A program made the position numbers and the translations under genes. 64,000 nt of DNA from positions 1,557 to 65,556 of the forward strand of contig JAKQHR010000015.1 in assembly GCA_029557905.1 (NCBI GenBank), given 5' to 3'. Positions 28,490 through 63,824 of the stretch are shown piece after piece. The notes beneath the pieces were generated by a model that was given only the letters and a program-made list of their open reading frames with translations, was not told where the DNA came from and did no database searches. Origin of the DNA: Verrucomicrobiota bacterium. Lineage in GTDB: Bacteria; Verrucomicrobiota; Kiritimatiellia; JAKQHR01. Within the stretch, counting starts at the first letter, position 1, and each line of letters opens with the position of its first letter.

Positions 28490-29060
28490 CTGAAAAACCT
28501 CAAAAAACGGCCCAAAATGGCCAAAAACAGCCAAAAAACGGCCAAAAATGGTCAAAAACGGCCAAAAAACGCCCAAAAACGGCCTGAAAACGGGTTCTTC
28601 TACGATTTTCGTGGGAACATTGGTCGAAATGGAACTGGCTGCGGGGAAGAAATAAAGAACAGGACACAGCCAGATACAGGAGCTGGGAACATAATTTCCC
28701 GGAGAATCGGCGTGATCATGGCGGCGGTGTAGTAGCGCCTCTGTGAGGCGCATTCTGAAACATATGCCGCTCGCAGAGCGGCTACTACACCAGAACCCCT
28801 GCAAATAAAGGCGTTCCCGGCTGTTGTGATCATGGAACGACGAACATGAAAAGCCGTCTGTGAATTCGTGTGAAAGCGGCGTCCAGCCGCCGCACTCCAA
28901 AGCGCCGCGAAGGTGGCGCAACGTTTATCATTTAACGCCAGAAGTTGATTTGGATATCAAAACCTTCCACGATAATTGACGAAGAACCCAAAAATGGCCC
29001 AAAACGGCCTGAAAACGCCCAAAAACGTGAAAAATTCGAATTAGTACTAATTTAGTACTA
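28490..29060. repeat. Phased A-tract array (about 10-11 bp unit, e.g. CCAAAAACGG) ending in TAGTACTAATTTAGTACTA, copy 1, interrupted by a MITE
   Basis: A4-A6 tracts recur at 28493-28590 and 28990-29037; palindrome at 29042-29060. Confidence 0.85.
28593..28988. mobile_element. Non-autonomous ISL3-like MITE, copy 1 (396 bp)
   Basis: Terminal IRs GGTTCTTCTACGATTTTCGTGG / GGTTCTTCGTCAATTATCGTGG (18/22). Reverse-complement homolog of 63318-63721. No transposase ORF. Confidence 0.72.
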
Positions 29061-29099
29061 TATAACCGCCTCCAGTCTCTGCATTTCCTTCAGCCTTCT

Positions 29100-29460
29100 T
29101 TATCATTCTGACTCCTGACTTCTGAATCCTGACTCCTGTCTTTTTTCCCACTTTCTTCTGGCATTCCGCTCCGCCCCTGCGTTATTCTTCGGAACGGCGA
29201 GGGGGTCCAGGAGGACGGACTGAAAGTGAACGACAGACCGGAAACGGCAGGACTCGCGCTGAACACACCCCATACCTGTAACCTTTCTTTTCACCATCAC
29301 GAACCTGAAGATTTCTCGCGCAGGGGCGCAGGGACGCGGAGGGGATGAATAGATATTTCACCGCAAAGAACGCAAGAGAGCGCAGAGAATTAACTGCATA
29401 AAACGCGGAATGGACGAAAGAAGAAGCGGCGCGCGGAAACACAGAAAAGAACGGAACGAA
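29100..29460. repeat. Low-complexity short-period repeats (TCCTGAC/TTCTGAA heptamers, CGCAAAGAACGCAAG-type motifs)
   Basis: attctgactcctgacttctgaatcctgactcctg at about 29106-29139; motifs at 29325-29390 recur at 32490-32632. Confidence 0.6.
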
Positions 29461-29518
29461 TGTTAGATGTTAAGACCCGACCCCATTAACCATTAAGTAA
29501 CGAAGATACAACCCTAAC

Positions 29519-29525
29519 GTTAGGC
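29519..29525 (+). other. Integron core site R' (GTTAGGC) of a degenerate attC or attI preceding cassette 1
   Basis: ccctaacGTTAGGC is the exact complement of the R'' GCCTAAC closing cassette 1. The upstream arm is not clearly recognisable. Confidence 0.7.
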
Positions 29526-29540
29526 ATTAAGGAGACAGCT

Positions 29541-60603: not shown

Positions 60604-61577
60604 ACATGGAAAACTCGTGTCGCAAAGCGGTGGGCGTGGATTTCGGCGGAACAGGGGTCAAGATGGCCGTCGTGGATGATCAGGGAACCATCCTTTCGCG
60701 CGGCGGGTTTGCCACGGCCGATGCCTCATCCCAGAAAGACTGGCTGCATGCCGTCGAGCAGGAACTCCACAAAATCACCGCCGCCGCCGGCCTGACGCTC
60801 AACGATCTGGACGGGGTGGGGGTCGGGGTCCCCGGCTTCGTGGATTTCGCGCGGGGCTACGTTCATAACCTGGCCAACGTGCCCGGATGGACAGGCGTCT
60901 ATCTCAAGGAAATGCTCCGGCAGCAGCTCAGGCTCCCGGCCGTGATTGACAACGATGTGAATGCCATGGCCCTGGGAGAATCAAAATTCGGAGCCGGAAG
61001 AAACTATGATCATGTGGTGTTCGTCACCCTTGGCACCGGGGTGGGCGGCGGCATTCTTATCCACGGAAAAATCTATCGCGGGGCCTATTCCACCGCGGGC
61101 GAAATCGGGCACATGTCCATAGACATGAACGGCATCAAAAGTCCCGAGGGCAGCGGCGGCCTGGAGCAGTACGTAGGGAACCGCCGGATCGTCGAGCGCG
61201 CCGTGCGCCTGATCGGCGAGGGCCGCCCGACCGGCATCCTGGAACTGGCCGGCGGCCGCACGGATAACATCACGCCGAAGATCATCGCGGAAGCCGCCCA
61301 TGCCGGCGATCCGCTCGCACTGGAGATCTTTGATTTCGTGGCCGACTGTCTTGCGGCGGCCTTTGCATCCATCACCTATCTGATCCAGCCGGAAGTTTTC
61401 ATCCTCGGCGGCGGCGTCGCGCAGAGCGGCCGGGTTCTCTTCGATCCGCTGATGCGGCATCTGACCGGCCGCCTCAGCCCGTTCATCGCCGAACATGTCA
61501 GCGTGATTCCGGCGGAACTGGGCAGCGATGCGGGCGTCATTGGCGCGGCGGGCCTTCTCTGGACCCCGGAAGCGTAA
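60600..61577 (+). CDS. ROK family sugar kinase (glucokinase-like)
   Basis: GVDFGGT, DNDVNAMALGE, TLGTGVGGG and GEIGH. Confidence 0.9.
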   Translation: MNMENSCRKAVGVDFGGTGVKMAVVDDQGTILSRGGFATADASSQKDWLHAVEQELHKITAAAGLTLNDLDGVGVGVPGFVDFARGYVHNLANVPGWTGVYLKEMLRQQLRLPAVIDNDVNAMALGESKFGAGRNYDHVVFVTLGTGVGGGILIHGKIYRGAYSTAGEIGHMSIDMNGIKSPEGSGGLEQYVGNRRIVERAVRLIGEGRPTGILELAGGRTDNITPKIIAEAAHAGDPLALEIFDFVADCLAAAFASITYLIQPEVFILGGGVAQSGRVLFDPLMRHLTGRLSPFIAEHVSVIPAELGSDAGVIGAAGLLWTPEA

Positions 61578-61579
61578 TG

Positions 61580-63205
61580 TCAGAACGAAAACGCGGCGTC
61601 ATCAATTGTTACCATAATCCGGTAAAACATCCTTTCGGCCGGCATGTTGGTATCGGTCAGCACGGTCAGACTGCCGTCCGAAGCGACGGTGGTCTGTCCG
61701 GGATGTTCCTGCCATGTGTCTTCAGCGAGATTGGTTTTGTACAGAAGGGTATAGAGCCGGTTGGATGCGCCGTGACAGGTGAGAACGATGGGGTATGCGT
61801 TTGATACGCCTGTAATCTGAAAATAGTCGTTGCTGTTTCCCGGGTCGGTGTCGGCCGTCCATTCCTGCAGATTGCTGAAAAAATCTCCATCTGCATTCTC
61901 TGCGGCATCTGCCGCGCTGGTGGGATTCAGACTATAGGCGATTTCCCAGTAGTCCGGGATGGTGTCCCCGTCGGAATCGGAACGGTGGGGATCATATTCA
62001 TCGGCGCCGACATCCCATGCGGAGCCGACGGGACGGCTCTCGCCGTAGATGTCGTCGGAGAAATCAACGAGGGTTGCGCCCTGATCAATAACAGAGGTCG
62101 CGCCGGGCAGCAGGCGGAGATCGCCGCTGGTCGGGCTGCGGAACCACTGTGCCTGCACTGTTTCAATGTTTCCGGTTTGCGCGGCGGCCGGGGCTCCATC
62201 GCGCGCCGTGATAGGGCCGTCCACCAGATTATTACGGAACACCAGATTGGAACTGCCGGCAAAGCGGTATTCGATCGGGGCCCAGTAGGGGACATAGACT
62301 GTATTGTTGTCCACGCTGACGTTGTTTGCGTATTCCAGCCCGATTCCCACATCGGTATAAGGCCCGTCCCCGTTGTTATAGATAAAATTGTTGCGGATGG
62401 CGCTGGCGCCGCCTTCAAAGCCCCCGCCGTAGCTTGAAAGTCCAAAACCGATCCCGCGGTCACAGTTGATGATGATGTTGCGCTCGACAATGATGTTCTG
62501 CGCGCGGCTGGTGTTGCGGTTCCAGAAGTGGATGGCGTGCTCGGCATAGCTGTCGGGGGCGCGGATATACTCAAACCGATTGTCGCGCACGGTCCAGTTG
62601 ACCGCCTTGTGAGCGTCTATTCCGCCCGTGTAATACTGATAGGCCCACTGGTTGGTGAATTCAAAAAGGCAGTATTCCACAAGGCTGTCCGTCACGCCTT
62701 CGGGATCGCCGTCTGCTGAAGTTCCCTTGATGAACTGCTCGTTGCAGTTGACAATGCGGCAGTTGTGAACCCAAAGGCCGGAAACATTGTGGGGTTCCTG
62801 CCCATGCGCCTGAATGCCGTGATAGCGGCACCAGCCGAATGTAATATCCGCCACCGTGAAATTGCTGGCGGTCACCCAGAAAACATGCTGGAGTGCGGCC
62901 GACTCCCCCTCATCCGGGCCGCGAATGACCACCGCATCGCGGTCGCCGCTCAGGCTGCGGATGATGACGTTGTTGTTCGTGATGGGCAGGGCCCAGTCGG
63001 TCAGGACATAGACCCCGTTGGAAATCAGGATGGTGGCGGGTGCGCTTGCGGCATTCACGGCCGCCACGGCATTCTGAAGCGCGGCCACGGTCCCGACGCG
63101 GTGGATGGTCCCGGTGGTGATGTTGAGCGGAGGCCCGCGGCCCGGCTCGGATGCCGGGGCGGCGCAGGCAAGTCCGAGTATTAAAATGGCTCTCCACAAC
63201 CTCAT
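61580..63205 (-). CDS. Secreted right-handed beta-helix protein with conserved C-terminal module
   Basis: Start reassigned to MRLWRAILILGLAC; parallel beta-helix pattern (NN.F, IGFG, NNT); DIGAYE-like DVGADE; DSDGDT.PD.WE...FYRIMV. Confidence 0.82.
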   Translation of the reverse strand: MRLWRAILILGLACAAPASEPGRGPPLNITTGTIHRVGTVAALQNAVAAVNAASAPATILISNGVYVLTDWALPITNNNVIIRSLSGDRDAVVIRGPDEGESAALQHVFWVTASNFTVADITFGWCRYHGIQAHGQEPHNVSGLWVHNCRIVNCNEQFIKGTSADGDPEGVTDSLVEYCLFEFTNQWAYQYYTGGIDAHKAVNWTVRDNRFEYIRAPDSYAEHAIHFWNRNTSRAQNIIVERNIIINCDRGIGFGLSSYGGGFEGGASAIRNNFIYNNGDGPYTDVGIGLEYANNVSVDNNTVYVPYWAPIEYRFAGSSNLVFRNNLVDGPITARDGAPAAAQTGNIETVQAQWFRSPTSGDLRLLPGATSVIDQGATLVDFSDDIYGESRPVGSAWDVGADEYDPHRSDSDGDTIPDYWEIAYSLNPTSAADAAENADGDFFSNLQEWTADTDPGNSNDYFQITGVSNAYPIVLTCHGASNRLYTLLYKTNLAEDTWQEHPGQTTVASDGSLTVLTDTNMPAERMFYRIMVTIDDAAFSF

Positions 63206-63269
63206 GCATGCAGTATGAGCATAAAACATGCCATTTGGGAATGATACTGCGCAGAAACTGCGACCAGCG

Positions 63270-63824
63270 TGAAAATGCCCCAAAATGCTCAAAAAACGCT
63301 AAAAAAGGCCAAAAATGGGTTCTTCGTCAATTATCGTGGAGGATTTCAGGCTCAAAACCAGCTTCTGATCGTTTCATGAAAAATGCTGCGCCGCCTTCGC
63401 GGCGCTCTGGAGTGCGGCAGCTTGATGCCGCTTTCAGACGAATTCACATACGGCTTCTAATGGCTGGTAAGCATCGGTCCATGATCGATACATGCGCAAA
63501 TGCCTTTATTTGCAGGGTTTCTGATGTAGTAGCTGCTCTGTGAGCGGCACATGTTTTCAGAATGCGTCTCATAGAGACGCTACTACACCGCCGCTGTGAT
63601 CACGCCGATTCCCCCGAAGTTCAGTTTCATGTTCCCAGATCTGACTGAGTCCTGCTTCCCGTTTCCTGTCTGCTGCCGCATCCATTTCGCCCAATGTTTC
63701 CACGAAAATCGTAGTAGAACCCAAAAATGATCAAAAATGCCCCAAAATGGCCAAAAAACGCTAAAAATGGCCCATAATTCGCAAAAAACACCCAAAATAT
63801 CGAAATAGTACTAATTTAGTACTA
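63270..63824. repeat. Phased A-tract array ending in TAGTACTAATTTAGTACTA, copy 3, interrupted by a MITE
   Basis: A-tracts at 63272-63315 and 63723-63797; palindrome at 63806-63824 followed by TATAACCGCTTCCAGTCT (TATAACCGCCTCCAGTCT in copy 1). Confidence 0.85.
63318..63721. mobile_element. Non-autonomous ISL3-like MITE, copy 2 (404 bp), opposite orientation
   Basis: Ends GGTTCT...AGAACC flanked by an exact 8-bp direct repeat CAAAAATG (63310-63317 and 63722-63729). Confidence 0.8.

Follow-up and report, generated by a model that had tools for sequence, protein, structure and literature searches.

We analysed a window of 64,000 nucleotides from a genome of the class Kiritimatiellia (contig JAKQHR010000015.1), in which two arrays of helically phased A-runs, each followed by a palindrome and a TATAAC motif, are interrupted by copies of the same MITE; a third array of the same kind is uninterrupted. 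The features, in window coordinates, are as follows.

28493 to 28592, plus strand: distal part of array 1, with 10 A-runs at a period of ~10 bp; its last 8-mer, TGAAAACG, adjoins MITE copy 1.
28593 to 28988, plus strand: MITE copy 1 (subfamily A), 396 bp, with an IRL-type end on the left and an IRR-type end on the right; no coding capacity.
28721 to 28798, plus strand: core module 1 in copy 1, a GTAG-headed inverted hairpin pair (GCGCCTCTGTGAGGCGC, GCCGCTCGCAGAGCGGC) that is REPIN-like and not IS-derived.
28870 to 28903, plus strand: core module 2 in copy 1, a hairpin (AAAGCGGCGTCCAGCCGCCGCACTCCAAA) whose repeat is found across the class Kiritimatiellia.
28989 to 29034, plus strand: promoter-proximal part of array 1, with 5 A-runs; its first 8-mer, CAAAAATG, adjoins MITE copy 1.
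29042 to 29060, no strand assigned: palindrome TAGTACTAATTTAGTACTA, then TATAAC; a putative operator or promoter spacer served by array 1.
32169 to 32249, plus strand: uninterrupted reference array with 6 A-runs and palindrome TAGTACTAATTTAGTACTA at 32231-32249; an unoccupied target of the same kind.
63272 to 63317, plus strand: distal part of array 2, with 5 A-runs, ending in the duplication CAAAAATG at 63310-63317.
63318 to 63721, minus strand: MITE copy 2 (subfamily B), 404 bp, in the reverse orientation to copy 1, with which it shares 78% identity.
63722 to 63799, plus strand: proximal part of array 2; the second duplication copy, CAAAAATG at 63722-63729, forms its start.
63806 to 63824, no strand assigned: palindrome TAGTACTAATTTAGTACTA, then TATAAC, downstream of array 2.

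Copy 1 aligns over its full length with the reverse complement of copy 2 (85% mean column identity with MAFFT; 78% identity over 405 columns, E 7.5e-90, with BLASTN), and a repeat search found five colinear inverted arms that span the element. Both copies start with GGTTCT and end with AGAACC, their terminal IRs being imperfect and ~24 nt long (GGTTCTTCTACGATTTTCGTGGGA versus GGTTCTTCGTCAATTATCGTGGAA), and the A-runs of the flanking arrays are on the plus strand at both loci. These results agree with a sequence-only reading of the window, which had described one segment as a diverged reverse complement of the other, with imperfect IRs starting GGTTCT on both and flanking arrays that point the same way. 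There are ~6-7 copies or variants of the MITE, 385-404 bp long, spread over 6 contigs of the genome. ORFs overlapping the MITE copies have zero Pfam matches, reading frames are broken by indels between copies, and a sigma-70 consensus scan found no promoter within or beside the element. The copy on contig C97 has degenerate IRs and flanks that do not match each other, and it shares ~500 bp of left flank with the copy on contig C26; at least one copy has therefore spread by segmental duplication or recombination rather than by transposition.

The same genome contains at least four copies of a 1316-bp insertion sequence (IS) with a single ORF of 408 aa. The encoded transposase matches Pfam PF01610 DDE_Tnp_ISL3 (E 1.5e-76), Zn_ribbon_ISL3 and HTH_Tnp_ISL3 (Pfam PF14690 and PF13542), and NCBIfam NF033550 transpos_ISL3 (336.8 bits against a cut-off of 180). 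A copy in assembly L106 differs by 1 mismatch, and the nearest transposase relatives found are only 27-54% identical. The terminal IRs of the IS are GGTTCTTCTACGATTTTCATGGAA and GGTTCTTCGTCAATTATCGTGGAA, with the transposase stop codon lying within the right IR; the last 24 bp are 100% identical to the right end of the MITE, and the first 37 bp are 86% identical to its left end. ISL3 elements are 1.2-1.5 kb long, with a single ORF, imperfect IRs of 15-39 bp starting with GG, and an 8-bp target duplication. The IS fits this family in its domains, its length of 1316 bp, its single ORF, its GG-starting imperfect IRs and its 8-bp duplications. The MITE had been called ISL3-like from its ends; that assignment now has a counterpart in the same genome, an IS with matching ends and an ISL3-domain transposase.

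Integration of the IS duplicates 8 bp. In this genome, the IS flanks on contigs C92 and C122 pair through AAAATAAC and those on C10 and C121 through CAAAAACG, and in the sister genome 8 of 9 IS right ends pair with a left end via a perfect 8-mer. An empty site lies between the genes for arginine decarboxylase and saccharopine dehydrogenase, where two assemblies from other metagenomes (L105 and L114) have an uninterrupted array, ...AACGGC CAAAAACG CCTAAAA..., with a single CAAAAACG; L107 is uninterrupted at this site as well, but its array units differ. The IS is present there in this genome and in L106 and L108-L110, and L111 begins just 1 nt inside the IS end. The insertion is polymorphic in the population, with both occupied and empty sites.

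For the MITE, the 8-mer CAAAAATG stands on both sides of copy 2 (63310-63317 and 63722-63729), a perfect duplication, whereas copy 1 has TGAAAACG on the left (28585-28592) and CAAAAATG on the right (28989-28996), which match at 5 of 8 positions and are not a duplication; the flanks of both copies are as first described. Elsewhere, the flanks of the C26 MITE match at 7 of 8 positions, and those of the C97 and C65 MITEs do not match. The expectation that other copies would have both IR-defined boundaries and 8-bp duplications holds for the boundaries and, for the duplications, in the IS pairs; the C97 and C65 MITE flanks depart from it. Copies 1 and 2 are old: they differ from each other by 22%, and every assembly found has them. 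In another haplotype of locus 1 the left 8-mer is TAAAAACG and the array is shorter by one unit, so the array itself mutates, and quickly, and an old duplication can be erased; unit loss and substitution in the surrounding array have probably cost copy 1 its duplication. Exchange of flanks with the C26 copy was considered as another route to this loss but is not supported, since the swapped 8-mers agree at only 6 of 8 and 7 of 8 positions. Among the other assemblies compared, 8 at locus 1, 1 at locus 2 and 7 at the C26 locus, none has an empty MITE site, and we therefore infer mobility of the MITE from its common ends, its duplication and its dispersed copies. The best counterpart of the flanking AhpC-like gene in a genome of the same genus (G001) has only 35% identity, and there is no close orthologue. 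We conclude, with a probability of roughly 0.88, that both repeats in the window are old copies of a MITE that has only the terminal IRs of the 1316-bp ISL3 IS, is mobilised in trans and is targeted to arrays.

The opposite orientations of the two copies had also raised the possibility of a DNA switch, in which a site-specific recombinase flips the segment between its IRs upstream of promoters. The element is indeed bounded by IRs, with an array upstream of it and a promoter-like motif on its other side, and both orientations occur in the window. However, the two copies occupy separate loci and have diverged by 22%, and each locus has a single orientation, the same in all 8 other assemblies that reach locus 1 and in the one other, independent assembly found for locus 2, although assemblies report only the majority state. 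Moreover, the IRs are those that terminate an ISL3 IS, and the lists of neighbouring genes, which include SurA-like, PNPOx, AhpC/TSA, trypsin-like, beta-helix and HNH proteins and unknown small proteins, contain no recombinase gene adjacent to the MITE loci. Across ~21 independent insertions, the elements are oriented at random with respect to the A strand (~5 in the same and 6 in the opposite orientation here, 4 and 6, respectively, in the sister genome). This is what transposition should give, and it explains why copies 1 and 2 face opposite ways. We therefore set aside the suggestion of an invertible segment as most improbable; the opposite orientations simply reflect two separate insertion events.

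The interior of the MITE is a mosaic of host hairpin repeats, combining a REPIN-like doublet with a class-wide hairpin, rather than a deleted IS. Free-standing copies of the GTAG-headed doublet occur on contigs C37 and C119 and in related genomes, and the hairpins of core module 1 show compensatory C:G to T:A changes. These observations bear on an alternative in which the element is a structured non-coding RNA gene, or a REP/REPIN element kept by a RAYT (Y1 transposase), with the ISL3-like ends being incidental. Such a reading would account for the very stable fold of the MITE (z = -7.9 and -5.1 on the two strands, with -7.9 for copy 1), for the compensatory changes between MITE copies in three hairpins, for the free-standing doublets, and for the presence of Y1_Tnp homologues in the genome. 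Nonetheless, we consider it improbable: Rfam gave no family at the gathering score (the best match, to a spurious miRNA, had an E value of 0.017 and lay far below that score), the complete element invariably has ISL3 IRs and an A-run 8-mer at its borders, and the hairpin modules, which are only part of the element and are found alone elsewhere, are better read as captured passengers.

Helically phased A/T-tract arrays contain every IS or MITE terminus that could be recognised in the two genomes: all 20 IS/MITE termini of this genome and all 19 IS termini of the sister genome directly adjoin arrays. The genome has ~80 sequence-defined arrays, ~14% of which are occupied; together they make up 0.27% of the genome and 3.6% of its non-coding DNA. 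The array period is 10.2 bp and not 8 bp, which rules out that the arrays were built from repeated 8-bp duplications. Within arrays, the staggered cut of 8 bp falls on either side of a single, entire A-run. An A/T run of at least 4 nt is present in all 38 junction 8-mers tabulated and is complete in 37, whereas a complete run is found in only 36% of 8-bp windows inside arrays (P ~4e-10, counting ~21 independent insertions).

Insertions might be found in arrays for a different reason, namely survivorship: the IS would need only an 8-mer with an A/T run, insertions into coding sequence (91% of the genome) would be purged, arrays would account for much of the harmless remainder, and neither arrays nor curvature would be recognised. 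Distant ISL3 relatives, inside and outside the class (27-54% identical transposases), have A/T-rich 8-bp duplications at isolated sites, not in arrays, as judged by crude IR finding from which we used only loci with clear GG[CT]TCT ends. Similarly, the ISL3 element IS31831 prefers A/T-rich targets (PMC1590026). Arrays also hold 71% of non-coding matches to the strict consensus CAAAAAYG and 41% of non-coding [CG]A4-6[CT]G sites, by a crude codon-usage gene caller applied to this genome; an earlier null was discarded, as it used stop-to-stop ORFs of at least 120 aa, which covered 97.5% of the genome, arrays included. However, the strict consensus fits only ~1/3 of the observed duplications, and arrays hold only 33% of non-coding A5 runs, against which ~10 independent events here, all in arrays, have P ~1e-5; adding the 10 sister-genome events lowers P further, the array shares being those from the crude gene calls for this genome. 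Arrays are thus used far more often than isolated A-runs, and we regard survivorship as a rather unlikely explanation for the whole pattern, although selection could inflate the preference for arrays over single A-runs, since insertions elsewhere may be lost. The element itself is of an ordinary kind, with an unusually strict choice of landing site. The proposal of targeted insertion into curved DNA stands as regards arrays, and a preference for A-tracts extends to the other copies; curvature as the feature recognised is a further step that goes beyond the positions of the termini.

We propose that the ISL3 transposase of the same genome moves the MITE in trans, presumably by the copy-out/paste-in route assumed for ISL3. 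The target-capture site of the transposase may prefer the narrow-groove, rigid or bent geometry of A-tracts, and phased tracts in tandem, or a protein that binds them, may raise capture well above that at isolated A-runs, such that arrays would become harmless landing pads upstream of promoters. More tentatively, it is possible that DNA shape, not sequence, is what is read, either by the transposase or by an architectural protein of the host that covers the arrays; the reader would recognise a series of helically phased A-tracts, with the cut made exactly around one of them, and would thereby confine the IS/MITE family to the ~80 promoter-upstream pads. If so, arrays of curved DNA would double as safe harbours for mobile DNA, and occupancy by an IS or MITE would tune promoters by shifting part of the array ~0.4-1.3 kb away. 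The pair is a clean natural example of near-absolute regional target choice, with 39 of 39 termini in arrays, and it is this array-specific targeting that makes otherwise ordinary elements of interest. Should an assay bear out the preference, the pair would provide a simple system for studying how DDE transposases choose targets by DNA shape or curvature, and would show how mobile elements spare a compact, ~91% coding genome. The abundant A-tract arrays of Kiritimatiellia are also hot spots of structural variation: units are lost, the IS, the MITE and other sequences insert, and copies may recombine with one another. The collapse of IS copies at contig ends accounts for contig breaks in these metagenome-assembled genomes.

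The ISL3 family includes IS31831, IS1001, IS1096, IS1165 and ISPpu12. The parent IS resembles its family in having a single DDE transposase with Zn-ribbon and HTH domains, GG-starting IRs, 8-bp duplications and A/T-rich targets; it differs in inserting exclusively into helically phased A-tract arrays that lie upstream of promoters. Indeed, our literature searches, with ISfinder outside their scope, found no ISL3 member described as confined to such arrays. IS231A, an element of another family, prefers bent targets. In Escherichia coli, IS5 and IS1 insert into intrinsically curved, A/T-rich DNA upstream of the promoters of glpFK, bgl and fucAO (PMC2753651, PMC11043490). Insertions of all three elements, like those described here, concentrate in A/T-rich DNA just upstream of promoters, but those elements belong to other IS families and use a few hot spots that are under selection, whereas here ~80 arrays across the genome are available and ~14% are occupied. 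A close parallel to the MITE is a 187-nt MITE of Microcystis aeruginosa that is mobilised by ISL3 elements and has 8-nt duplications (PMC11448079). Both are short and non-coding, with terminal repeats that match transposase-carrying ISL3 elements of the same genome, 8-nt direct repeats (here at copy 2) and an interior rich in stem-loops. The element described here is twice as long, has different ends (GGTTCTTC versus GGCTCTTCG in Microcystis), has a core made up of host hairpin repeats, and has an array-specific target. Lastly, the core of the MITE carries a GTAG-headed inverted hairpin doublet with compensatory changes that also occurs free-standing and is like a REP/REPIN, but the unit as a whole has at its boundaries ISL3 IRs and an 8-bp duplication, features absent from REPINs.

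The two window copies of the MITE align end to end, copy 1 (28593-28988, + strand) matching the reverse complement of copy 2 (63318-63721, - strand) from first to last base, with 85% mean column identity in a MAFFT alignment and 78% identity over 405 columns by BLASTN (E 7.5e-90); a repeat search detected five colinear inverted arms between them. Both copies start with GGTTCT and end with AGAACC, and both sit within + strand arrays of helically phased A-tracts (A4-6 runs at ~10 bp spacing), each with the palindrome TAGTACTAATTTAGTACTA to its right. The 8-mer CAAAAATG stands on each side of copy 2; at copy 1 it stands only on the right, and the left 8-mer is TGAAAACG. 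The observations of the sequence-only reading (the inverted pair, the GGTTCT ends, the arrays and the flanking 8-mers) were thus all present. Beside the promoter, 5 A-runs remain at copy 1, with 10 displaced, and about 8 remain at copy 2, with 5 displaced.

The sequence-only reading had assigned the MITE to ISL3 by its termini, and a search of the genome (G000; 2.55 Mb in 196 contigs), which belongs to the class Kiritimatiellia by its relatives, did find an ISL3 transposase gene with MITE-matching ends. The 24 nt that close the MITE have 100% identical matches on four contigs, each ~115-140 nt from a contig end, and its first 37 nt have 86% identical matches at the ends of three contigs; these contig ends represent both ends of one collapsed multi-copy insertion sequence (IS), which we assembled by joining C111, C121 and C10 via a 141-nt exact overlap. 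The IS is 1316 bp long and has a single ORF, with its stop within the right inverted repeat (IR); the 408-aa protein matches DDE_Tnp_ISL3 (E 1.5e-76), Zn_ribbon_ISL3 and HTH_Tnp_ISL3 in Pfam, and scores 336.8 bits against NCBIfam transpos_ISL3 (cut-off 180). The entire IS is also found, with 1 mismatch, on an independent metagenome contig (L106). The MITE and the IS have only their termini in common, the MITE interior of about 330 bp being unrelated to the IS. ORFs overlapping MITE copies had no Pfam match, and their frames are disrupted by indels between copies. Beyond the window, the genome contains:

C26:21565-21949, MITE copy, 95% identical to copy 1
C97:2673-3067, MITE copy, 94% identical to copy 1, IRs degenerate
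C65:17046-17367, MITE copy, 92% identical to copy 1, internal deletion beside the left IR
C172, MITE right-end fragment
C111:662-1066, second MITE family with the same IRs

Among the contig-end IS copies, AAAATAAC is common to the C92 and C122 flanks, and CAAAAACG to the C10 and C121 flanks. In a sister genome of the same genus (G001) we located 10 left ends and 9 right ends of the IS, and a perfect 8-mer pairs eight of the nine right ends with a left end. Between the genes for arginine decarboxylase and saccharopine dehydrogenase, the IS is present in G000 and in four contigs from other assemblies (L106 and L108-L110), and a further contig, L111, starts just 1 nt inside the IS end. The same locus is uninterrupted in L105 and L114, with a single CAAAAACG at the exact position of the IS, and is also uninterrupted in L107, where the array units are unlike those of L105. 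The paired flanks, and the comparison of occupied with empty sites, show that transposition of the IS, with an 8-bp duplication, is real and fairly recent. An empty site for any MITE copy, looked for in other assemblies, was not found, so for the MITE we only infer mobility. Three contigs join flanks that are separate in G000: L106 connects the flanks of C92 and C10 via the IS, L120 connects the right side of C97 to the left side of C26 via the MITE, and L124 connects the site of copy 1 to C26 via the MITE. Such junctions reflect either chimeric assembly or genuine recombination among the copies.

An array was taken to be a series of four or more A (or T) runs, each at least 4 nt long and 8-13 bp from the next. 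By this definition G000 has 96 array segments totalling 7.0 kb, or 0.27% of the genome, with a mean period of 10.2 bp and 34% GC (58.5% for the genome); a first-order Markov control yielded 1 array per Mb. The sequence-only reading had suggested targeted insertion into curved DNA, and the other copies do show a preference for A-tract arrays: an array adjoins all 20 recognisable IS and MITE termini in G000 and all 19 IS termini in G001, where one further pattern match with 2 mismatches, at an unrelated site (L092), was excluded as a chance match. About 11 of about 80 arrays hold an IS or MITE. Array context or curvature may be what is read, or else A-run sequence together with survivorship may account for the association. 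Using a simple codon-usage gene caller (2169 genes, 91% coding), we found that arrays make up 3.6% of the non-coding DNA of G000, and hold 33% of its non-coding A5 runs, 41% of its non-coding [CG]A4-6[CT]G sites and 71% of its non-coding CAAAAAYG sites. The probability that about 10 independent events in G000 would all fall in arrays is about 1e-5 under the A5 null and only about 0.03 under the strictest consensus; the 10 events in G001 would lower both values, provided that array shares are similar there. Position inside the arrays is itself non-random. An A/T run of 4 nt or more is present in all 38 tabulated junction 8-mers and is complete in 37, as compared with a complete run in just 36% of 8-bp windows within arrays (P about 4e-10, counting about 21 independent insertions); therefore, the staggered cut brackets one A-tract.

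Relative to the A strand, about 5 elements in G000 lie in the same direction and about 6 in the opposite one, with a 4 to 6 split in G001, and the opposite orientations of the two window copies are what random insertion would be expected to give. The alternative offered from the sequence alone, that the segment is invertible between its IRs, is unsupported, because each locus has a single orientation among other assemblies (8 of 8 reaching the site of copy 1, and the 1 found for copy 2, in which that locus is identical, although assemblies report the majority state only) and there is no recombinase gene near either locus.

A-tracts in helical phase ahead of promoters are known as a curved-DNA, UP-like feature. 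The palindrome TAGTACTA-N3-TAGTACTA occurs at 36 sites genome-wide (up to 3 mismatches), at 25 of them directly 3' of an array. In the window it is found at:

29042-29060
32231-32249
63806-63824

A TYGAAA hexamer lies just upstream of the palindrome, with TATATA or TATTTA 17 nt later; the palindrome therefore looks like a promoter spacer, and may act as a putative operator. A sigma-70 scan did not call this region as a promoter. On the A strand, many other arrays end 40-150 bp ahead of a gene start. Arrays change more rapidly in evolution than the DNA around them: the left array of copy 1 (window 28493-28590, compared with L069, L071, L073, L076 and L077 from other assemblies) occurs as two haplotypes, which are one 10-bp unit apart in length and have several substitutions between them, including TGAAAACG versus TAAAAACG at the junction, whereas the neighbouring MITE shows no differences. 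Runs of heptamer repeats (CTGACTT, CTGAATC, CCTGAAC), shared with C95, C11 and the far end of the window's own contig, lie a short way downstream of the array-palindrome promoter, at 29100-29150 and 63847-63990; they may belong to a repeated leader or non-coding RNA module. At C26:~21244-21474 a T-tract array is split by another kind of insert, about 235 bp long and with many CGCACAAAGAC and CATGAAGA motifs, and C97 carries this insert in its corresponding part; a module of about 900 bp (promoter, array, insert, array, MITE) is duplicated between these contigs.

The MITE folds far more stably than shuffled sequences (z = -7.9 and -5.1 for the two strands). Its positions 133-205 form a GTAG-headed inverted hairpin pair with compensatory C:G to T:A changes, which is also found free-standing in G000, in G001 and in another family; its positions 278-311 form the hairpin AAAGCGGCGTCNAGCCGCCGCACTCCAAA, which frequently has a second hairpin, TTTGGAGTGCGCTGGCTCGACAGCGCTTTG, as its partner. 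Hairpin AAAGCGGCGTCNAGCCGCCGCACTCCAAA is multi-copy and 93-100% conserved in related Kiritimatiellia genomes, and some part of the MITE was matched in 15 of 60 related genomes searched, nearly always at this hairpin. Neither the core nor hairpin AAAGCGGCGTCNAGCCGCCGCACTCCAAA had an Rfam match. The relevant features are:

window 28870-28903, hairpin AAAGCGGCGTCNAGCCGCCGCACTCCAAA
window 63403-63437, - strand, hairpin AAAGCGGCGTCNAGCCGCCGCACTCCAAA
C37:84282-84341, free-standing GTAG-headed doublet (REPIN-like)
C119:48708-48763 and 49641-49696, free-standing GTAG-headed doublets
L024, L039 and L036 (outside G000), free-standing GTAG-headed doublets
C138:2435-2632, Y1_Tnp (RAYT/IS200-like) homologue
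C179:11909-12193, Y1_Tnp (RAYT/IS200-like) homologue

Since these hairpin modules occur elsewhere as free-standing or multi-copy repeats, the core is a mosaic made up of captured host repeats, bounded by ISL3 ends. In another metagenome assembly (L070; ERZ27257484 k141_108745), hairpin 2 of copy 1 is interrupted right after GCCGCTCGCAGAGCGGCT, equivalent to window ~28784, by an element of the IS110 family with DEDD_Tnp_IS110 and Transposase_20 domains, which is thus nested in a REP-like hairpin.

The IS and MITE are new, but their kind is already known: a MITE of Microcystis is likewise mobilised by ISL3, with 8-nt duplications (PMC11448079). More distant ISL3 elements, in other phyla (transposases 47-53% identical) and in other Kiritimatiellia (27-54% identical), lie in isolated A/T-rich 8-mers rather than arrays, in agreement with the A/T-rich targets that IS31831 is reported to prefer (PMC1590026). 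The use of A/T-run 8-mers thus seems to be a family trait, whereas confinement to arrays is either peculiar to the IS of this genus or due to the availability of arrays there. The notable feature is that insertions are almost absolutely confined to phased A-tract arrays, with the cut placed precisely around one tract; insertion into curved DNA upstream of promoters is known for IS5 and IS1 (PMC2753651, PMC11043490).
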